The translations under genes and the position numbers were made by a program. From assembly GCA_011390985.1 (NCBI GenBank), contig JAABRJ010000423.1, forward strand, positions 1 to 27,062: a stretch of DNA of 27,062 nt. The letters run 5' to 3'. A model generated the notes under the pieces. It searched no databases and had not been told where the DNA came from. It saw only the letters and a list, made by a program, of their open reading frames with translations. The stretch comes from Desulfobacteraceae bacterium. GTDB taxonomy: Bacteria > Desulfobacterota > Desulfobacteria > Desulfobacterales > JAABRJ01. This document shows positions 624 through 11,424 of this stretch, in pieces; the stretch's first letter is position 1, and the number at the start of each line of letters is the position of its first letter.

Positions 624-1733
<1,110 letters not shown>

Positions 1734-1751
1734 GAGGGTATCCTTGCGGGT

Positions 1752-3464
1752 TCAGGTTACAAAAAGGGGCACCGGCTCAAACCGGTTGACGTCGATCAGC
1801 CCCCGGTCGGTGATCTTCAGCTCTGGAATCACCGCAAGGGCCAGAAACGACAGGGTCATAAAGGGATCCTGCAGGCCTGCGCCGAGGTCCCGCGCCGCCC
1901 GCAGCAGCTGGTCCAGGGCGCTTTTGACCGCCTCGACCGGCTCGAGCGACATCAGGCCGGCCACCGGCAGGGGCAATTGCGCGTGGACCCCGCGCTGGCT
2001 GGCGACGACCAGCCCGCCGCCCATCTCGACCAGCGCCGCGAGAGCGGTCTGCATGGCGTGGTCATCGGCGCCGACCACGATCAGGTTGTGTGAATCGTGG
2101 GCCACGCTGGCGGCCAGGGCCCCCTGCTTCAGGCCCAGGCCGCGGACAAAACCGATTCCGGTGCGGCCGGTTCCCGTATGGCGCTCGATCACCGCGATTT
2201 TTAGCAGGTCGCGGTCGGGGTCGGCAACCGCAACGCCGTCCCGGGCGGTAACCCCCACGATCAGCTGGCGGGTGACGATCTGGTCGGGCACGATGGCGAT
2301 CGCCCGCATCCGGTCGCCGAGAATCGGGACCCGCAGATCCACCCGCTCCAGGGCAACGTGCATGCTGGCGGGCACAGCCGCGGCAGCCGGCGCGGGGCGC
2401 GCCAGGGTCATGCGCCCGTTACGGGCCACGACCGCGCCGCGGACATAGACCGTCTCGATCTGCGGGCAGGTCAAATCCGAGAAGACCACCAGGTCGGCCT
2501 GGCGCCCCGGCGCAATGGCGCCCAGGGTTTTCAGGCCGAAGTATTCCGCCGGGTTGAGGGTCGCCATTTGGATGGCGGTCAGGGGGCCGAGCCCCAGGTC
2601 GATCGCCTGGCGCACGATGCTGTCGATGTGACCCTCGCCGAGCAGGTCATGGGGGTGGCGGTCATCGGTGCACCACATCATACGGCGGGCGCTGTGGCGG
2701 TCCACCACTGGCAGCAGCGCGGCCAGATTGCGGGCCGCGCTGCCCTCGCGGATCATGATGTGCATCCCGGCGGCGAGTTTGGCCCGGGCCTCGGCCACCG
2801 TGCTGCATTCATGGTCGCTGGCGATCCCCGCCGCGGCATAGGCGTTGAGGTCCAGCCCGCTCAGCCCCGGTGCGTGGCCGTCGGCCGGTTGGCGGTGGGC
2901 CCGGGCGGCCTCGATTTTGCGCAACACCTCCGGGTCGGCCTGCAGCACCCCGGGGAAGTTCATCATTTCCCCCAGGGCCACGACCCGCTCGTTTTCAAAG
3001 TAAGGGGCCAGCTCCCGGGCGGTCAGGACGGCGCCGGCGGTCTCCATCGGCGTTGCCGGCACGCATGACGGGAGGGTGAAATAAACGTTCAGGGGCTGGT
3101 CGACAGCCGAGCGCAGCATGTATTCGATGCCCCTCAAACCCAGCACATTGGCGATTTCGTGGGGATCGGCGCACACCGTGGTGGTGCCGCAGGGCACCAC
3201 CGCCCGGGCAAATTCGCCCACCACCACCATGGCGCTTTCGATGTGCACATGGGGGTCGATGAAGCCCGGGGCCAGATAGCGGCCCTCCAGGTCAACATAC
3301 CGGCGACCCTTGTAGGGGCCGATCCCCAGGATCGTGCCGGCGCTCACGGCCAGGTCGCCGTGGACGATTTTACCGCCAAAAACGTCGATGATGCGGGCGT
3401 TTTTCAGGACCAGGTCGGCGGCCTGTTCTCCCCGGGCGGACCGGATGATGCTGGCAAGTGTCAT
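1752..3464 (-). CDS. ade: Adenine deaminase
   Basis: 570 aa; PGFIDPHVHIES, DPHEIANV, REGSAARNL, CTDDRHPHD, C-terminal ASVAHDSHN and FMTLSFLALAVIPELKITDRG. Confidence 0.95.
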   Translation of the reverse strand: MTLASIIRSARGEQAADLVLKNARIIDVFGGKIVHGDLAVSAGTILGIGPYKGRRYVDLEGRYLAPGFIDPHVHIESAMVVVGEFARAVVPCGTTTVCADPHEIANVLGLRGIEYMLRSAVDQPLNVYFTLPSCVPATPMETAGAVLTARELAPYFENERVVALGEMMNFPGVLQADPEVLRKIEAARAHRQPADGHAPGLSGLDLNAYAAAGIASDHECSTVAEARAKLAAGMHIMIREGSAARNLAALLPVVDRHSARRMMWCTDDRHPHDLLGEGHIDSIVRQAIDLGLGPLTAIQMATLNPAEYFGLKTLGAIAPGRQADLVVFSDLTCPQIETVYVRGAVVARNGRMTLARPAPAAAAVPASMHVALERVDLRVPILGDRMRAIAIVPDQIVTRQLIVGVTARDGVAVADPDRDLLKIAVIERHTGTGRTGIGFVRGLGLKQGALAASVAHDSHNLIVVGADDHAMQTALAALVEMGGGLVVASQRGVHAQLPLPVAGLMSLEPVEAVKSALDQLLRAARDLGAGLQDPFMTLSFLALAVIPELKITDRGLIDVNRFEPVPLFVT

Positions 3465-3474
3465 GGATGGGTCC

Positions 3475-4800
3475 CTAACTGCCTGTCGAAGGGCGGATTT
3501 TTCGGGCGATGGCCGTCACCTCGCGGCGGATTTCGCCGACATCGAGGCTTTGCAGCCTTCCGTTCGCCACCAGGTGCCGTCCGGCCACGAAAACCTCCCG
3601 GACGTCGTCGCCGCGGGCGGTGTACACCAGGTGCGAGGCCGGGTGGTAGATCGGCACCAGGTGCGGCGCATCGGTTGCGAGAACGGTGATGTCGGCGGCC
3701 TTGCCGAGTTCCAGCGAGCCGCTGACCGCACCGAGGCCGATGGCCTCGGCGCCGCGGATGGTGGCCATCTCGATGACGGTCCGGGCCGCGCAGGCCGTCG
3801 GGTCCCCGCTGCGAACCTTGTGGAGTTTGGCTGCGGTGTCCATTTCGTGAAACAGGTCGAGGTCGTTGTTGCTGGCGCACCCGTCGGTGCCGAGACCCAC
3901 GGTGATCCCGGCCGCCAGGAATTCGGGGACCGGCGCAATGCCGCTGGCCAGCTTCATGTTGCTTTGGGGGTTGTGGGAGATCGCGGCCCCACCGGCGGCG
4001 ATGCGCGCGATGTCGCGCTCGTCGGCCCAGACGCAGTGCACCAGGAGGGTCCCCGGCGTCAGGAGGCCGAGACCGTCCAGGTAGGCGATCGGTGAAACGC
4101 CGTGGCGGGCGCGGCTCTCGTCGCACTCTTGACGGGTTTCAGCGGCGTGGATCTGGAAGAGTGCGCCGAATTCGGCGGCCAGGGCCTTCGCTGCGCGCAG
4201 CGTTTCCGCGCTGCAGGTGTAGGGCGAATGACAGAACACCGCCGGGGAGATCAGCGGCGAGCGCGACCGGCAGTGCGCCAGGAAATCGCGGGCCGCGGTG
4301 ATATTGTCTTTGGGGTCGGGAACGCCCGGTGCCGCAAAATCGATGATCCCCTGCCCCAGGACCGCCCGCATCCCGGAGTCCGCAACGGCCGCGGCCACCT
4401 GGTTTTCGAGGAAATAGCCGTCACAGCAGGTGGTCGTGCCCGACAGGAGCATTTCGGCACACGCCAGGCGGGCGCCCCAGCCCACCGTCGCGGGGCTGAT
4501 ATGCTGCCGCTCCGCCGGGAAAATATGGTCGTGCAGCCATTTTTCCAGGGGCAGGTCGTCGGCCAGGCCGCGGAAAAGCGTCATGGGCAGATGGGTGTGG
4601 GTGTTGACCAGTCCCGGCATGATGATGCCGCCGCGGGCGTCGATGCACACCGCGGCCTGCGGGCGTGCGGCGCCTACGGCGGCCGGGCCCAGCGCGGCGA
4701 TCCGGCTGTTGCGGATCCCGACGAACCCCGGGGAAAAGATGTCAAAGTCGGGGTTGACGGTCAGCACGATGCCGTTGTGAACCAAGGTGTCGTAAGTCAT
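3475..4800 (-). CDS. Amidohydrolase, 5'-methylthioadenosine/S-adenosylhomocysteine/5'-deoxyadenosine deaminase family (distal paralog)
   Basis: Metal ligands NTHTH, HAAE, HCVW, GTDGCASNNDLD; MTLFRGLADDLPLEKWL substrate loop. Exact substrate cannot be determined from sequence alone. Confidence 0.88.
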   Translation of the reverse strand: MTYDTLVHNGIVLTVNPDFDIFSPGFVGIRNSRIAALGPAAVGAARPQAAVCIDARGGIIMPGLVNTHTHLPMTLFRGLADDLPLEKWLHDHIFPAERQHISPATVGWGARLACAEMLLSGTTTCCDGYFLENQVAAAVADSGMRAVLGQGIIDFAAPGVPDPKDNITAARDFLAHCRSRSPLISPAVFCHSPYTCSAETLRAAKALAAEFGALFQIHAAETRQECDESRARHGVSPIAYLDGLGLLTPGTLLVHCVWADERDIARIAAGGAAISHNPQSNMKLASGIAPVPEFLAAGITVGLGTDGCASNNDLDLFHEMDTAAKLHKVRSGDPTACAARTVIEMATIRGAEAIGLGAVSGSLELGKAADITVLATDAPHLVPIYHPASHLVYTARGDDVREVFVAGRHLVANGRLQSLDVGEIRREVTAIARKIRPSTGS

Positions 4801-4860
4801 TAAACGCCTTTTTGGGGTTTCAGCCGGACCCGCCGCCGCTGCGCCATTTAGGGTGCAGGG

Positions 4861-6180
4861 TCAGCGGGATGCGGCCCCGATTTGGGCTGCAATCGCCCGC
4901 ACGTCGGCGGTGATCCGCTCGAGATCCAGGGTCCGGAGTTCGCGCTTTTCCATGACCAAGCGCCCGTTGATGACAACCGTGTCCACGTCGCCGCCCCGCG
5001 CGGCGTACACCAGGTGCGAGGCCGGGTGGTAGAGCGGGGTCAGGTGGGGCTTGCGGCAGTCGATGACGATCAGATCGGCCCGTTTACCGGGTTCCAGGGA
5101 GCCGGTGATCGCATCCAGGCCCAGGGCGCGGGCGCCGTCGATGGTGGCCATTTTCAACACCTGTTCGGCCGGCAGGGCGGTGGGGTCCAGGGTGGCCACC
5201 TTGTGCAGTTTGGCGGCCGTGTCCATTTCCAGAAAGAGATCCAGGTCGTTGTTGCTGGCGCACCCGTCGGTTCCCAGGGCGACGCACAGGCCGGCAGCCA
5301 AGAGCGCCGGGACCGGGGCGATCCCCGAGGCCAGCTTCATGTTGCTCTCCGGATTGTGGGCGATCTTGACATCCGCCGCTTGCAGAAGGGCTATATCCTC
5401 GGGGGTCAGTTGGACGCAGTGGCAGGCCAGCAGGTTGGGGGCCAGGATCCCGAGATGCGCCAGATGGCCCACCGGCGTGCGGCCATAGCGCGACCTGATC
5501 TGGGCCACCTCGCCGGCCGTTTCCGAAAGGTGGGTGACCAGCGGCAGCTGGAGTTCACGGGCCAGATCGGCCGCCCGGCAGAGCAGATCGGGTGCGCACA
5601 GGTAGGGCGAATGGGGCTCGACTGCAACCCCGATCAGGGGGTCGTCGGCCCACCTGGCGGCCATGCGGCGGGTATAGGCCAGCCCGTTTTCCAGGGCGCC
5701 GTAATTGGGCGAAGGAAAGTCAAAGAGCACTTCACCCACCACCGCCCGCAGGCCGGCTGCGTGCGCGGCACGCGCGACGGCCTCCTCGAACAAGTACATG
5801 TCGCAGAAACAGGTGGTTCCCGAAAGGATCATTTCGGCGCAGCCCAGCAGGGCGCCCTTGGTGACCATCTCAGGGGTGAGGCGGGCTTCAGCCGGGAAAA
5901 TGTGGTCGTTCAGCCAGGTCATCAGGGGAAGGTCGTCGGCCAGCCCCCGGAAACAGGTCATGGCGGCATGCGTGTGGGTGTTGACCAGCCCGGGCATGAT
6001 GACGCCGCCGTGGGCATCGATGACCTTTTTTGCCTGGACCCCGGCCAGGCGTTCGGCCGGCGCGGCCGCCAGGATGCGATCGCCGGCAATCGCCACCGCC
6101 CCGTCATTGATCCGGGTGCCGGCGCCGTCCATGGTCAGAACGGTGCCGTGGGTGACCAGAATATCGGCGGCAGGCAGCAT
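4861..6180 (-). CDS. mtaD: Amidohydrolase, 5'-methylthioadenosine/S-adenosylhomocysteine deaminase family (proximal paralog, canonical DMY motif)
   Basis: NTHTH, RGLADDLPLMTWL, CDMYLF, PHSPY, HLSE, HCVQ, GTDGCASNNDLD. Confidence 0.88.
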   Translation of the reverse strand: MLPAADILVTHGTVLTMDGAGTRINDGAVAIAGDRILAAAPAERLAGVQAKKVIDAHGGVIMPGLVNTHTHAAMTCFRGLADDLPLMTWLNDHIFPAEARLTPEMVTKGALLGCAEMILSGTTCFCDMYLFEEAVARAAHAAGLRAVVGEVLFDFPSPNYGALENGLAYTRRMAARWADDPLIGVAVEPHSPYLCAPDLLCRAADLARELQLPLVTHLSETAGEVAQIRSRYGRTPVGHLAHLGILAPNLLACHCVQLTPEDIALLQAADVKIAHNPESNMKLASGIAPVPALLAAGLCVALGTDGCASNNDLDLFLEMDTAAKLHKVATLDPTALPAEQVLKMATIDGARALGLDAITGSLEPGKRADLIVIDCRKPHLTPLYHPASHLVYAARGGDVDTVVINGRLVMEKRELRTLDLERITADVRAIAAQIGAASR

Positions 6181-6224
6181 GCGGATTTTTTCTTTTCGGT
6201 CAAAGGGTTTTTAGGGAGCCGGTC

Positions 6225-7079
6225 TCAGGCACCGGAGAGCTCGGCCGCGATCCCCGCGAAAATTCGGCCCAGGTGCGGCGCCGCCTTTTCGGCCACCGCG
6301 ACGATCGCCTCGACGGTTGCCGGGGCCGGGTGGTCCGGGTCGTTGAGATTCGTGATGGTGGAGACCCCGAGGACCCGTATGCCCCCGTGGACGGCGGTGA
6401 TCGTCTCCTGGATGGTGGACATGCCGACGGCATCGGCTCCGATGGTTTTGAGGAATCGGATTTCAGCGGGGGTTTCCAGCGAAGGCCCTTTGAGGCCGGC
6501 ATAGACCCCGTGGGTCAAAGGGATGCCCGCCGCCGCCGCGGCTTTTCGCGCGGCTGCGGCCAGGACCGGATCGTACACCCGGCTCATGTCCGGAAAGCGG
6601 AGCCCCCAGCGGTCGAAATTGGGTCCGACCAGCGGGTTTTCGCCGGTTAGGTTGATGTGGTCGGTTATCAGCATCAGGTCGCCCGGGCGAAAAGACGGGT
6701 TCAGGCCCCCGGCGGCGTTGGACAGGAGAAGGGTGTCAACTCCCAGGGTCTGAAGCACGCGCACGGGAAAGGCCACCGCCAGCGGGGTGTAGCCTTCGTA
6801 GAGGTGGAAGCGGCCCAGAAGCGCCAGGGTGGGTGTTCCGGCCAGGGTGCCGTATAGCAGGCGGCCGGGGTGGCCTTGAACGGTGGCGGCCGGGAAATGG
6901 GGAATATGACTGTAAGGCAGCGCGGTGGCGACCATCAGGCCGCCGGTCACGGCGCCGAGGCCGGTTCCCGTCATCAACCCCAGGCGGGGGGGGGCGTCCA
7001 AGCGCGCAGCGATAAAGTCGGCGGCCTCCTGAACGTGAAGCTGATAGGGTGCGAACGGTGTTCCGCTCTCTCCTGGCAC
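6225..7079 (-). CDS. Purine nucleoside phosphorylase, trimeric PunA/XapA class (6-oxopurine type)
   Basis: GRFHLYEGY, NAAGGLNP, DHINL, RFPDMS, GPSLETPAE, VGMST, ITN. Start reassigned to GTG at 7079, which follows an AAGGAGG Shine-Dalgarno with a 7-nt spacer; the ORF-track start at 7130 lies inside the promoter. Confidence 0.92.
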   Translation of the reverse strand: MPGESGTPFAPYQLHVQEAADFIAARLDAPPRLGLMTGTGLGAVTGGLMVATALPYSHIPHFPAATVQGHPGRLLYGTLAGTPTLALLGRFHLYEGYTPLAVAFPVRVLQTLGVDTLLLSNAAGGLNPSFRPGDLMLITDHINLTGENPLVGPNFDRWGLRFPDMSRVYDPVLAAAARKAAAAAGIPLTHGVYAGLKGPSLETPAEIRFLKTIGADAVGMSTIQETITAVHGGIRVLGVSTITNLNDPDHPAPATVEAIVAVAEKAAPHLGRIFAGIAAELSGA

Positions 7080-7128
7080 GCGGCGGCCTCCTTGGCGGGC
7101 GGGTTGGCGTGTTTTGAAAACCGGCGGC

Positions 7129-7157
7129 ACTATAATTCATGGCTCCCCAACCGTCAA
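7129..7157 (-). promoter_or_regulatory. Sigma70 promoter of the salvage operon
   Basis: Minus strand TTGACG (7157-7152), 17-nt spacer, TATAGT (7134-7129). The -10 ends about 50 nt upstream of the PNP start. Confidence 0.75.
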
Positions 7158-7226
7158 CCCGACATTCAAGCGGCTGCAGGCGCAACTCCACGGCCCCGGG
7201 CGCCCTGTTTTGCGAAACGCTTGCAA

Positions 7227-7255
7227 TTGACTTTCGACCGGGTTTGTGAAAGATT
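7227..7255 (+). promoter_or_regulatory. Candidate sigma70 promoter for the DRTGG (and possibly rnfB-rseC) transcript
   Basis: TTGACT (7227-7232), 17 nt, then AAGATT preceded by TG (extended -10). The -10 is a weak match. Confidence 0.4.
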
Positions 7256-7267
7256 GCAGCTTCACAA
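7244..7267. promoter_or_regulatory. Perfect inverted repeat TTGTGAA-N10-TTCACAA, candidate operator
   Basis: 7-bp arms at 7244-7250 and 7261-7267, overlapping the -10 and predicted start of the candidate promoter. Confidence 0.5.
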
Positions 7268-7402
7268 TTATGCAATGAATATCCGGCCTTGGGGCAGCGA
7301 TTCGGTTCTCGGGGCGTTTTTTGGGTAGGGCCGCCGATGGCTTAAGTGGCAGCGAAATCATTGCCGTGCCGTTCCCCGTGGAGAAAGTGCAACCCGATTA
7401 CG

Positions 7403-7756
7403 ATGAAAATATCCGAAATCAAAGACATATTAAAGGCTGAAGTGCTGGCCGGTGAAGATCATCTGGACGATGTGGTGGTGGGCGGCGGCGCCGCCGATCT
7501 GATGGAGGATGTTCTCGCGGCGGTTGCCAAGGGCGCCGTTCTGCTGACGGGATTGAATTCGCATCAGGTTATCCGGACCGCCAAAATCGCCGGAGTGGGC
7601 GCCGTTGTTTTTGTCCGCGGCAAAAAACCGGCCAGCGACCTGATTGCGCTTGCCCAAGAATTCCATCTGCCGCTGCTGCTGACGAGCCACACGCTGTTTG
7701 TCTCCTGTGGGCGGCTCTACATGAACGGCCTGCGGGGCTTGGACGGTTCCTGGTAA
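7403..7756 (+). CDS. Stand-alone DRTGG-domain protein
   Basis: MKISEIKDILKAEVL, AADLMEDVL, VLLTGL, VIRTAKIAG, VVFVRGK pattern. Start set at ATG 7403. Confidence 0.82.
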   Translation: MKISEIKDILKAEVLAGEDHLDDVVVGGGAADLMEDVLAAVAKGAVLLTGLNSHQVIRTAKIAGVGAVVFVRGKKPASDLIALAQEFHLPLLLTSHTLFVSCGRLYMNGLRGLDGSW

Positions 7757-8124
7757 CCGTCCAAGATGGCGGAAGCTGCCAAATCGACCGGCCCGCAAGT
7801 CTGCAATTGAAAATGAGCGTCAACTTTGGTAAGCGTCCTTACGCATGCCAAGAAATCGGCGATGCTTGGGGCGGACCGCCGTCGCCGTTTTCAGAAATGA
7901 CCGAAGCGGTTCGTTTGGAGGAGATCAGCGCGAGCTGGAAAGCGCATCGCGGCCCGCCGCATTTTCTGGAGGACCGTGCCGTCGCCTTCCTGAACATTTA
8001 ATCCTTGGCGGCCGTTAAGGCTGCTTCGCGCACCGTCGCTTGTCCGGTCGGGCGGTTTCCGTCCGAGGCCGGGAAGGGCCTGCGCGGGTGGTCGCCGGTC
8101 ACGCTGCAAAGGGGAGAGTGCATT

Positions 8125-10179
8125 ATGCTGGAAGCCTTGTTTATGATGGGGGGGCTTGGTCTTTTGGTGGGTGTCGGTCTGGCCGCAGCTTCCAAAGCCT
8201 TTTTCGTTTACGTGGATCCGATGATCGAGGCGGTGGAAAGCGCTCTGCCGGGTGCCAACTGCGGCGGTTGCGGCCTGCCGGGCTGCAGCGCGAACGCCGA
8301 GGCCATTGTGTCCGGCCGGGCGGCACCCAACTCCTGTGTTGCGGCCGGCCCTGAAGTGGCTGCGGCGATTGCCACGATTCTGGGGGTGTCCATTGAAGTT
8401 AAGGAGCCGGACATTGCGCGCCCCGGCTGCACTTACGGGGTTCAGGATGCCGACATCAAGTACCTGTATGACGGTCTGAGCGACTGTCGGGCAGCGGCCC
8501 TGCTCAGCGGCGGCATGAAAGTCTGCACTGTCGGCTGCCTGGGGCTGGGCAGTTGCGCCAAGGCCTGTCCGTTCGATGCCATCACGATGGGTCCCGAGGG
8601 GCTGCCGGTGGTGAATGAAGCCCGCTGCACGGGCTGCGGCACCTGTGAGCGGGTGTGCCCCAAGCACATCATCACCCTTTCCTCGGTCACCCGCCGCATC
8701 ATGCGGGAATACACCGCCGATGAGTGCACAACCCCCTGCCAGCGCGCCTGCCCCGCCGGCATCGATATCTGTGAATATATCCGGCAGATCACGCTGGGCG
8801 ATTACCACCGTTCGGTTCAGGTGATCAAAGAGCGCAACCCCTTCCCCACCGTCATCGGCCGCATCTGTCCGCGTCCCTGCGAACAGGAGTGCCGGCGCGG
8901 GCTGGTCGACGAACCCGTGGCGATCAACTTTCTGAAGCGGTTTGTGGCCGATTATGAACGCGCAAAGGGGTCCCGGATTCAGCCCTTCAAGGCGCCCGCG
9001 ACCGGGCGCAAAATCGCGGTGGTCGGGGGAGGCGTGGAAGGCCTCTCCACCGCCTTTTTTGCCGCCCGGCTCGGGCATGAGGCCACTGTTTTCGAGGCGA
9101 CCGCCAAACTCGGCGGCTTGCTGCGCACCGCCATCGCCCGCAATCGTCTGCCCCAGGACGTGCTCGACTGGGACATCCAAGGGGTGCTAGAGATGGGCGT
9201 GGCCGCTGAAACCGGCAAAGCCCTGGGGAAAGATTTCAGCGTGGCGTCCCTTCTCCAGGACGGCTATGAAGCGGTCTTCCTTGCCGCCGGCGGGTGGGAC
9301 AGCCGACTGACCCGGCAGTCCGGGTCTGGCGTCGAAAGGCCGCTTCCCAACACCCATCTGCTCATCGATTTCCTGAAAGCTGACACGGCGCTTCAGGGCC
9401 AGATCGCCAAAAAAGGGGATGTGGTCATTGTCGGCGGCGGACCGGCCGGGTTGGAGGCCGCCCGCATCTGTCAGAAGGCCGGTGCCGGCAAGGTGAGCCT
9501 TCTGATCCGCGAACCCCGGGAAGACAACCCCCTGAGCGATGCCGAGACGAAAGTGCTGGAAGGCGTTGAAATCCTTTTCGCGACGGGTGTTACACGGCTG
9601 ATCGGAAGGGCCGACCAGCTTCAAGCCCTGGAGCTGGTGGCCCTCGGCACCCGCAAGAAATCCCGAATTGCGGCCAAAACCCTGTTGCTGGCGGCCGGGC
9701 GGTTTCCCCAGTTTATTTTCGGGCCGCCCCAGGTGGTCGAGGGCCAGGAGGCCGTGGCGGGCAGCTGGGAGGCGATTGAGGCCCACAAACCCCCGGTCGT
9801 CGGGTCAACTGACGGGCTGCTGGCCGATGGCGATCCGCTGTCGGATTTCAGCGCCGCCATCAAGGCCATCGGCGCCGGGCGGCGCGGAGCGGCCGCCATC
9901 CACCAGGTGATGTACGGGATTGAACCGGGGCTGCCCGCAAACGTGATTACACCGGATGCCTACATTCAGAACGTTGACACGGTTGAAAACGTGACGGCCG
10001 CCAGCCGCAAGGTGATGCCGCTGTCGCCGGAGGGTGTCGAGATCGAGAAAGGCTACGACCAGGCCCAGGCCATGGCAGAAGCCGGCCGTTGTCTGCAGTG
10101 CGGTCTGATCTGCTACCGCGGGTGCGGCGACCAGACCGGCGAGCGCGGACAACCAAGCCGGCTGATCTTGGGCCGTTAA
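8125..10179 (+). CDS. RnfB-like Fe-S membrane protein fused to an NfnB/GltD-like FAD oxidoreductase module (684 aa)
   Basis: N-terminal TM helix and LPGANCGGCGLPGC (RnfB FeS domain); CTVGCLGLGSCAKACP and CTGCGTCERVCP ferredoxin motifs; then CQRACPAGID...NPFPTVIGRICPRPCEQECRR (Fer4_20), two Rossmann motifs and C-terminal EAGRCLQCG. ATG 8125 follows AGGGGAGAG. Confidence 0.88.
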   Translation: MLEALFMMGGLGLLVGVGLAAASKAFFVYVDPMIEAVESALPGANCGGCGLPGCSANAEAIVSGRAAPNSCVAAGPEVAAAIATILGVSIEVKEPDIARPGCTYGVQDADIKYLYDGLSDCRAAALLSGGMKVCTVGCLGLGSCAKACPFDAITMGPEGLPVVNEARCTGCGTCERVCPKHIITLSSVTRRIMREYTADECTTPCQRACPAGIDICEYIRQITLGDYHRSVQVIKERNPFPTVIGRICPRPCEQECRRGLVDEPVAINFLKRFVADYERAKGSRIQPFKAPATGRKIAVVGGGVEGLSTAFFAARLGHEATVFEATAKLGGLLRTAIARNRLPQDVLDWDIQGVLEMGVAAETGKALGKDFSVASLLQDGYEAVFLAAGGWDSRLTRQSGSGVERPLPNTHLLIDFLKADTALQGQIAKKGDVVIVGGGPAGLEAARICQKAGAGKVSLLIREPREDNPLSDAETKVLEGVEILFATGVTRLIGRADQLQALELVALGTRKKSRIAAKTLLLAAGRFPQFIFGPPQVVEGQEAVAGSWEAIEAHKPPVVGSTDGLLADGDPLSDFSAAIKAIGAGRRGAAAIHQVMYGIEPGLPANVITPDAYIQNVDTVENVTAASRKVMPLSPEGVEIEKGYDQAQAMAEAGRCLQCGLICYRGCGDQTGERGQPSRLILGR

Positions 10180-10210
10180 GCGCACACTACCGTTTTACCG
10201 AGGGCTCGTT

Positions 10211-10696
10211 TTGGCGACTGAAGAAGGATTTGTCATCAAGCTGGAATCGGCTACCACCGCCCGGGTGAAGACCAACAAGAAAAGCGCCTGCGCGGGCTGC
10301 GCCGCCCGGAATTCCTGCAACGGCATGGGCGACGACACGGAGGTCGAAGCCCTGAACCCGGCCGGCGCCCAGGTGGGAGATCGGATTCTGCTCCGAATTG
10401 AAACCGCCTCCCTCCTGAAAGCCACCTTCCTGCTCTACCTTTTTCCGATTATCTGCATGCTCGTGGGTGCGGTTATCGGCCAACGTTACGCGTCCCTGAT
10501 AGGGTTTGACGCCTCTGCCCTCTCTGCCCTTCTGGGGTTTCTGTTCTTCTTTCTGTCGATTCTGTTTGTCAAGTTCAAGGGCAACCGGATGGCGACCCAT
10601 AGTGCCTATCGGCCCAAGATCGTCAAAATCCTGAACCCTGTGAAATTAGAGCAGGACGACCTTGCCCAGACCGTCGTCCCCGCCCCATCCCGCTGA
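10211..10696 (+). CDS. rseC: RseC/MucC family membrane protein (Rnf/Rsx-associated)
   Basis: TTG start, MATEEG N-terminus, CAGCAARNSC motif, AQVGDRILL, YLFP and two TM segments. Confidence 0.82.
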   Translation: MATEEGFVIKLESATTARVKTNKKSACAGCAARNSCNGMGDDTEVEALNPAGAQVGDRILLRIETASLLKATFLLYLFPIICMLVGAVIGQRYASLIGFDASALSALLGFLFFFLSILFVKFKGNRMATHSAYRPKIVKILNPVKLEQDDLAQTVVPAPSR

Positions 10697-10860
10697 CGGG
10701 CCGCGCTCCCTCAGTTCCCATCCAACGAGGACTGTCACGGCGCCGGCCCGAGGGGTCGGCGCTGATCTGCAGCTAGTGACGCACGACCGGGAGCCGCTCG
10801 CGTTCCGGCGGGCTCGGGCAGGCGGCCTGGACACCGCGTTCATCCAGGAGATGGTTTGCA

Positions 10861-11424
10861 ATGAGGCGGCGCTGCCACTGGGCAGGGGATGACCCGCTGT
10901 GCGTGGCCTACCACGACAGCGAGTGGGGTGTCCCGCTGCACGACGATACCCGGCTTTTCGAATTTTTGGTGCTGGAAGGGACCCAGGCCGGTCTCAGTTG
11001 GCGGACCATCCTTCGTAAGCGCGAAAACTACCGCCGCGCATTTGACGGCTTCGATCCGGTCAAGGTGGCCGGCTACTGCCCTGAAAAGGTTTCGGCCCTG
11101 ATGGCCGATGCCGGGCTGATCCGCAACCGGATGAAAATCGAAGCCGCAGTCGGCAATGCCCGGGCCTTCCGCTCGGTCCAGGATCGCTTCGGCAGTTTTG
11201 ACCGCTACATCTGGCAGTTTACCGGCGGCCGGCCGGTAAGAAACACCTGGCGCCGGCCGGCGGATGTTCCCGCCTGGACGCCCCTTTCGACGGCCGTCAG
11301 CCGCGATTTGAAAATCCGGGGGTTCAAGTTTGTCGGGCCCACCATCTGTTACGCCTTCATGCAGGCGGTGGGAATGGTCAACGACCATACCGTGGACTGC
11401 TTCCGCCATTACGAGATCGGGTAG
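10861..11424 (+). CDS. tag: DNA-3-methyladenine glycosylase I
   Basis: RCHW, YHDSEWG, LFEFLVLEGTQAGLSW, IRNRMKI, GFKFVGPTICYAFMQAVGMVNDH...C. Confidence 0.96.
   Translation: MRRRCHWAGDDPLCVAYHDSEWGVPLHDDTRLFEFLVLEGTQAGLSWRTILRKRENYRRAFDGFDPVKVAGYCPEKVSALMADAGLIRNRMKIEAAVGNARAFRSVQDRFGSFDRYIWQFTGGRPVRNTWRRPADVPAWTPLSTAVSRDLKIRGFKFVGPTICYAFMQAVGMVNDHTVDCFRHYEIG

Follow-up and report, generated by a model that had tools for sequence, protein, structure and literature searches.

Rnf2 has been reported to be a core, abundant and constitutively formed redox complex of the Desulfobacteraceae, a family with a major part in carbon and sulfur cycling in marine sediments (PMC11887813). The mark of this Tol2-type complex (Desulfobacula toluolica) is a "large RnfB" of about 700 amino acids (aa), which contains an NAD-binding domain (PMC5109826; PMC11887813 supplement). 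In addition, the RnfC subunit is devoid of the NADH/FMN domain, the gene cluster encodes a cytochrome c, and the mode of action awaits experiment (PMC5109826; PMC11887813). With no NADH site in RnfC and an additional flavoprotein on RnfB, the electron donors and acceptors of Rnf2 are still a puzzle. The work that PMC5109826 cites for the complex of Desulfobacula toluolica Tol2 is that of Woehlbrand from 2013. Here we describe a large RnfB that is encoded at positions 8125-10179 (plus strand) of a stretch of 27,062 nucleotides from a Desulfobacteraceae bacterium (assembly GCA_011390985.1, contig JAABRJ010000423.1, positions 1 to 27,062; the whole stretch is called "the window"). It belongs to a paralogous group, group A, which differs from the operon-encoded large RnfB proteins, group B, and it probably provides the B subunit of the cytochrome-linked Rnf2-type complex of its genome in trans.

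The gene is one uninterrupted open reading frame (ORF) without an internal stop codon, from the ATG at 8125 to the stop codon at 10177-10179, and the sequence AGGGGAG is found a few bases 5' of the ATG. A longer frame starting with TTG-8005 finds no support among the homologs, all of which align from residue 1. The protein and its parts are as follows.

8125..10179, plus strand: large RnfB of paralog group A, RnfB module followed by a GltD/StnC-like FAD-NAD(P)H module, 684 aa
8125..8199, plus strand: N-terminal membrane helix, residues 1-25, with the hydrophobic stretch MLEALFMMGGLGLLVGVGLAAASKA; helix 2-25 in the AlphaFold2 (AF2) model
8245..8340, plus strand: RnfB-type FeS domain, residues 41-72, with Cys46, 49, 54 and 71 (PF04060, E 6.9e-12)
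8524..8676, plus strand: 2x[4Fe-4S] ferredoxin domain of the RnfB module, residues 134-184 (Fer4_7/Fer4)
8725..8970, plus strand: Fer4_20 domain with two [4Fe-4S] sites, residues 201-282 (PF14691, E 1.2e-23)
9010..9708, plus strand: FAD and NAD(P)H Rossmann folds, residues 296-528 (Pyr_redox_2 / NAD_binding_8, E 4e-20)
10090..10125, plus strand: C-terminal Cys motif CLQCGLICYRGC, residues 656-667, which aligns with RCLECG of StnC and Csac NfnABC

The protein consists of two modules, an RnfB module (residues 1 to about 195) and a GltD/NfnB-type module (residues about 196-667), with the junction at residues 191-200 or thereabouts (window about 8695-8724). All structural hallmarks of RnfB are present, namely the N-terminal membrane helix, the four-Cys FeS domain and the ferredoxin-type 4Fe-4S domain, and the score for TIGR01944 (rnfB) of 81.2 bits is above the NCBIfam cut-off of 68.7 and places the protein in the RnfB family; in a whole-genome scan 95.2 bits were summed in the frame of this gene. 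The RnfB equivalog models span residues 2-220, and the GltD-like models PRK12771 and PRK12814 span residues 190-664 with scores below their cut-offs (NCBIfam). The models for GltD of glutamate synthase failed (TIGR01317, 121.8 versus 447.7; TIGR01316, 204.7 versus 471.75), and a gene for a GltB partner was not found within the 27-kb window. The first-pass annotation, which was made from the letters only, had described a complete RnfB with membrane anchor, FeS domain and ferredoxin motifs that continues in frame near 8700-8750 into a Fer4_20 plus FAD/NAD(P) module ending with EAGRCLQC (residues 652-659). Pfam, TIGR01944 and the matches to solved RnfB chains confirm this description in all its details. 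The same annotation could not judge from the letters how well the architecture was already known; it is the published mark of Rnf2 described above.

The cluster ligands are highly conserved. Cys46/49/54/71 of the FeS domain and the eight Cys of the ferredoxin domain (134, 138, 144, 148, 168, 171, 174 and 178; the Pfam dicluster match covers residues 137-184) are invariant in groups A and B, as are Cys656/659/663 of the C-terminal motif. The sole exception is a group-A ortholog with an in-frame TGA at the codon that aligns with Cys46, for which the window gene has TGC (L009:1452-3580, G094:C145; ALPGAN*GGCGLPGC). This suggests a selenocysteine at a ligand position of the N-terminal [4Fe-4S] site. 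In-frame TGA codons at two other loci (L008, L045) turned out to be ordinary C-terminal stop codons on inspection. In the Fer4_20 domain, Cys201/205/209, Cys248/252/256 and Lys271 align with C100/C104/C108 and K170 of StnC, and Cys201/205/209 and Lys271 are invariant throughout group A. The Rossmann folds have conserved GGGxxG (301-306), E324, R341 and GGG (437-439) elements, and in 56 homologs these elements, the cluster-ligand Cys of the RnfB module and the six of Fer4_20 are all invariant or nearly so. The AF2 model was based on an alignment of 56 sequences, each at least 62% identical to the query. Its predicted local distance difference test (pLDDT) values are mostly 80-94 across the Rossmann-fold region and below 50 in the RnfB module and the C-terminal tail, with a mean of 65 for the whole protein.

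Comparison with the solved structures distinguishes the two modules. Residues 5-193 align with the canonical RnfB of Acetobacterium woodii (9eri_B) and Clostridium tetanomorphum (7zc6_B) with E-values of about 1e-50, starting within the N-terminal helix, and both have the membrane helix, an FeS domain with four Cys and clusters of the ferredoxin type. In contrast to the window protein, which has about 490 additional residues of flavoprotein, the canonical subunit takes its electrons from soluble ferredoxin and is encoded in an rnfCDGEAB operon. The best solved matches of residues 191-667 are StnC of Sporomusa ovata (8oh5_C) and the large subunits of NfnABC complexes (9bov_A, 9n5u_A), with E-values of 1e-62 to 1e-69. 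The Cys/Lys positions at the flavin-proximal clusters and the RCLxCG motif are shared. However, the window protein ends at RCLxCG, it has the RnfB module at its N-terminus instead of the NuoG/FdhF-like domain, it has Glu for the second Arg of the StnC "YRR" stretch, and genes for StnA/StnB (NuoE/NuoF-like) are not present in the window. NfnB/NfnL (Thermotoga maritima 4ylf_B, Pyrococcus furiosus 5jca_L) and GltD have the same fold with FAD and two [4Fe-4S] clusters, but are weaker matches (1e-39 to 1e-41), and dihydropyrimidine dehydrogenase also ranks behind StnC/NfnABC. A Foldseek search with the AF2 model resulted in the same relative ranking, with StnC/NfnABC chains at ranks 1-4.

The likeness to the large RnfB of Rnf2 extends over the whole protein: size, the RnfB N-terminus followed by an NAD-binding domain, and the order of membrane helix, FeS domain, two 4Fe-4S, Fer4_20 and FAD/NAD(P) domain are the same, and the genome of the window encodes a matching core, which includes a cytochrome c and whose RnfC is devoid of the NADH/FMN domain. 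However, the gene does not directly follow rnfA, it is not orthologous to the operon gene, and the protein falls into a separate clade with only 36-40% identity to the operon type. Of 101 genomes sampled from the order, 87 encode a full-length match; across the phylum the figure is 29 of 201 sampled genomes. More than 3,700 database proteins match, the best 120 of which all have the same length and domain set, and the named database records belong to the Desulfobacterales (Desulfobacteraceae, Desulfococcaceae, Desulfatitalea, Desulfamplus, Desulfosalsimonadaceae). In a phylogenetic tree the matches separate into groups A and B with 100% support in the Shimodaira-Hasegawa approximate likelihood ratio test (SH-aLRT). 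In the order, group-A proteins are 55-91% identical to the window protein (91% for the same-genus ortholog, 55-68% for the others), in contrast to 36-43% (about 39%) for group B. Both groups are present in 50 of the 101 genomes, while 18 contain only A and 19 only B. Among cultured relatives, Desulfatitalea alkaliphila encodes an ortholog with 61% identity, and D. multivorans has A as well as B, with its group-A gene at about 3.22 Mbp. The loss of group B would need eight changes on a quick and poorly resolved group-A tree, which also allows a single origin.

The two groups differ in their genomic location. In 14 of 15 loci the group-B gene comes immediately after rnfA; one of the loci is in a closed 4.46-Mb genome whose two rnf clusters map to 3.09 and 3.11 Mbp, in agreement with the published positions in D. 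multivorans. The remaining group-B gene does not adjoin rnfA within 6 kb, and its genome does not contain group A (L058, G078:C1:132500-138500). In every genome examined, group A sits in a separate cassette, apart from the rnf genes. The groups also differ at diagnostic residues. Group A has Arg462-Glu463 (Glu or Asp at position 463 in 54 of 56 proteins), whereas Arg-Arg is invariant in group B and is also found in StnC; Cys201 is invariant in A and absent from B, whereas an extra Cys660 in the C-terminal motif of B is absent from A. The identity between A and B is about 50% in the RnfB module and Fer4_20, and about 31% in the flavin domain. Within group A the RnfB module is 72-77% identical, and the RnfB and Fer4_20 parts are conserved equally well as or better than within group B, whereas the mean within-group identity of the flavin/NAD(P) domain (residues 286-600) is only 50% in A versus 69% in B. 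This gradient fits a shared docking site and a diverged nucleotide end.

In the window the cassette has three genes, and the fusion gene is flanked by the following two.

7346..7756, plus strand: small DRTGG-domain protein, 136 aa, first gene of the cassette (Pfam PF07085 DRTGG, E 2.9e-8)
10211..10696, plus strand: RseC/MucC-family membrane protein, 161 aa, 31 bp 3' of the fusion gene (PF04246, E 5.6e-32)

A DRTGG ortholog (52-85% identity) is located 5' of the group-A gene in 18 of 24 loci of relatives, and rseC is located 3' of it in 20 of 24, compared to none of 15 group-B loci. The copy in the window is the sole rseC gene detected in its genome. RseC is genetically tied to Rnf/Rsx in other systems (PMC9124969; PMC12174285); these are SoxR reduction in E. 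coli and autotrophy in Clostridium ljungdahlii. The RseC protein of the window resembles these small PF04246 proteins in having a Cys motif (CxxCx5C, Cys27/30/36, invariant in 17 orthologs) that is followed by hydrophobic stretches, but its gene is paired with a stand-alone rnfB paralog and is located neither 5' of rnfC nor in an rseABC arrangement. The general form of the cassette is [NuoE]-DRTGG-[NuoF]-rnfB(A)-rseC. All five genes are present in two genomes (G049, G054), NuoF adjoins the fusion gene in two more (G088, G084), and the three-gene form without NuoE/NuoF is found in the window, in the sister genome G066 and in nine other genomes. NuoE/NuoF remnants were sought in the spacer DNA of the window (7101-8130) and were not found. 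The divergent PNP gene 5' of the cassette is a synteny common to the window and G049. A prediction of a complex between the RnfB module (residues 1-200 with three [4Fe-4S]) and RseC gave a score of 0.00 ("no answer") and weighs neither way. That the window copy is a distinct paralog paired with rseC and a DRTGG gene had escaped the first-pass annotation, and a literature search found no papers on the stand-alone group-A paralog, its rseC link, or rnf operons without rnfB. Group A is an undescribed paralog with conserved partners of its own, while the architecture as such has already been published.

None of the genes rnfA, C, D, E and G is present in the 27-kb window; the rnfCDGEA genes are located on other contigs of the genome (G000). 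Contig C250 carries a partial rnfC followed by rnfD, G, E and A, and ends 103 bp past rnfA. In the same-genus genome G066, which is 98% complete, the region is contiguous and consists of a gene for a pentahaem cytochrome c (five CxxCH motifs) and rnfCDGEA, after which come a pseudouridine synthase gene in convergent orientation and CarD, and rnfB is absent within 3.8 kb on either side of the operon. On the map of G066, contigs C435 and C250 of G000 abut with about 124 bp between them. The RnfC of the operon is composed of RnfC_N and 2x4Fe-4S only, and it contains neither a Complex1_51K nor an SLBB domain, i.e., no NADH/FMN domain. The TIGR01944 cut-off is passed only by the window gene in G000 and only by the group-A gene in G066, G035 and G088. 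Several candidates for a hidden RnfB were rejected: one in G000 (C535) is an FeS+DUF3786 protein, three in G066 (C187, C393, C259) show neither an RnfB-like membrane helix nor a ferredoxin domain in their translations and score below the TIGR01944 cut-off, and another one in G066 (C347) looks like Nqr.

The same arrangement recurs among the genomes with group A only. In none of the ten informative ones (G000, G066, G035, G088, G006, G092, G087, G084, G033, G042) does an rnfB come after rnfA. G054, the eleventh, retains a decayed rnfB immediately 3' of rnfA in its cytochrome-linked operon (L033:6884-7395, G054:C4); this remnant consists of an N-terminal ORF of 92 aa with only the helix and the FeS domain, and of a C-terminal fragment with EADRCLNCCRLC in a different frame; judged from its sequence, it looks like a relic of an operon-type (group B) gene. 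RnfA/E-family genes are present in all 87 genomes with a large RnfB, a count whose weight is limited by the kinship among the genomes, and five sampled genomes without RnfA/E-family genes have no large RnfB either.

An rnfCDGEA operon that lacks B, together with a single rnfB-family gene elsewhere in the genome, suggests that the window protein serves Rnf2 as its B subunit. The functional tie to Rnf that had been proposed from the sequence has thus gained the backing of comparative genomics. We regard it as probable, though far from settled, that the gene encodes the B subunit of the cytochrome-linked Rnf2-type complex in trans. In solved Rnf complexes the membrane helix and the FeS domain of RnfB contact RnfA/E. 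The window protein would dock in the same way as canonical RnfB, i.e., via its N-terminal helix and FeS domain on RnfA/RnfE. NAD(P)H would reduce the FAD, and electrons would be passed on one at a time from the Fer4_20 clusters to the RnfB clusters and further along the RnfA/E-RnfG-RnfD path. They would leave the complex via the periplasmic cytochrome c and/or the Fe-S-only RnfC; either direction would be possible, and the transfer would be coupled to ion translocation. RseC might help the group-A head at the membrane, either in its assembly or in its anchoring. The flavin probably serves as a plain, non-bifurcating entry site, because StnC, the closest solved relative, has the same fold with the conserved Arg and Lys and does not bifurcate. 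In Rossmann folds in general, Arg-Glu in place of Arg-Arg hints at NADH over NADPH. The conserved Arg-Glu pair of group A, where NADPH-dependent relatives have Arg-Arg, suggests a preference for NADH, or at least a specificity that is changed compared to the operon-type large RnfB.

Several observations weigh against this assignment. The chief argument against group A being just RnfB is that half of the sampled genomes of the order with their group-A gene also contain B in the operon, so that A is dispensable for completing the complex there and may have another role. The NuoE and NuoF genes that flank group A in many relatives suggest a complex of its own. The flavin domain evolves faster in group A than in B, and the nucleotide site could therefore be altered or weakened. 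The genome of the window is fragmented and 85% complete, so that the case for there being no second rnfB depends on synteny with G066, an assembly of 400 contigs. Lastly, the pLDDT values below 50 at residues 22-140 of the AF2 model are too low for a cluster-to-cluster geometry.

The coexistence of A and B also makes the idea of exchangeable heads attractive. An "exchangeable input subunit" had already been considered in the first-pass annotation, and the two paralogous large RnfBs of the 50 genomes fit it well. In its full form, which we put forward tentatively and consider possible rather than probable, the Rnf2 core takes two interchangeable B heads, the NADPH-type B of the operon and the cassette-encoded A with its changed nucleotide site (Arg-Glu). 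Head A would need RseC for docking and would bring a NuoE/NuoF bifurcating module to the pump in many species, while lineages like that of the window would have lost B and would run on A alone.

The location of group A in its own cassette, its separation from B in the tree (100% SH-aLRT) and its presence beside an operon-encoded large RnfB would all be expected if the window protein were a membrane-tethered NAD(P)H oxidoreductase in its own right. Its RnfB-like N-terminus would then be only an anchor and an Fe-S wire, and the enzyme would work with RseC (and the DRTGG protein) and transfer electrons between NAD(P)H and soluble ferredoxin or another acceptor, without docking to Rnf. However, this explanation leaves the rnfCDGEA operons of the A-only genomes without any B subunit. 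It also does not account for the absence of large RnfB from the five sampled genomes without RnfA/E-family genes and for the high conservation of the membrane helix and the FeS domain, the very parts that contact RnfA/E. It therefore seems unlikely to us.

Even less probable, in our estimation, is that the protein is the membrane arm of a bifurcating transhydrogenase like Stn/NfnABC, in which the GltD module passes electrons from NADPH to a NuoE/NuoF (StnAB-like) bifurcating module that is encoded elsewhere in the genome. The nearest solved relatives are indeed StnC, Csac NfnABC and T. sibiricus NfnABC, the equivalents of C100 and K170 of StnC are conserved in group A, the orthologous cassettes of G049, G054, G088 and G084 carry NuoE and/or NuoF, and G000 contains NuoF-like genes elsewhere (C393 with 62% identity; C211). 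However, the latter are only 39-62% identical, compared to 68-76% for the cassette orthologs, and probably belong to other complexes; NuoE/NuoF are missing from the cassette in the window and in ten other genomes, and the spacers of the window retain no remnant of them. Furthermore, the protein is devoid of the NuoG-like domain by which StnC binds StnAB. One NuoF/HydB-like frame of 616 aa contains a single in-frame TGA in both genomes of the genus (G000:C211:1886-3136; G066:C184:5555-6805), and it may encode a selenoprotein or represent a read-through of two genes.

The idea that the flavin itself bifurcates like that of NfnB and delivers low-potential electrons straight into Rnf, as the first-pass annotation had supposed, has the GltD/NfnB fold, both Fer4_20 clusters and the conserved R341 (equivalent to R201 of NfnB) in its favor, but is highly improbable, since NfnB chains score far lower than StnC/NfnABC (1e-41 versus 1e-62 to 1e-69), the equivalent conserved Arg in StnC does not support bifurcation, the flavin is connected to only one Fe-S chain, with no second branch evident in the sequence, and no NfnA-like gene adjoins the window gene or is found anywhere in the 27-kb window (a genome-wide search for NfnA was not made). 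In StnC, the FAD of the GltD domain has been shown to be a non-bifurcating entry site for NADPH (PMC10482914).

Lineages that have an operon without rnfB and only the diverged, rseC-linked paralog represent a natural test of the exchangeability of the B head. In addition, the heads A and B, with Arg-Glu versus Arg-Arg, are a natural pair for asking which nucleotide is used by the pump, and a testable structural role is offered for RseC, which has so far been connected to Rnf only by genetics. If the two-head arrangement were true, Rnf2 would be a modular hub that joins NADH, NADPH, ferredoxin and a periplasmic cytochrome c, and RseC, which has long been called a regulator, would gain a structural role.

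Positions 624-7130, 5' of the cassette, hold a nucleoside/purine salvage cluster on the minus strand, and a regulator gene lies beyond it.

96-620: AsnC/NirD-like regulator
624-1733, minus strand: IF-2B/MtnA-like gene
1752-3464, minus strand: adenine deaminase
3475-4800, minus strand: amidohydrolase
4861-6180, minus strand: amidohydrolase
6225-7130, minus strand: PNP/MTAP-type phosphorylase

A search of positions 7000-11000 against Rfam gave no match, and sigma-70 and sigma-54-like sites 5' of the fusion gene were not detected above chance. The other genes of the window encode a DNA glycosylase, a glycosyltransferase, a RecN-like protein, a sigma-54 two-component pair and PilMNOPQ. The G+C content is 0.60-0.70 at 1-17 kb and drops to 0.47-0.57 at 17-26 kb, a part that covers a TPR gene, the sigma-54 response regulator/histidine kinase pair and pilMNOP(Q).

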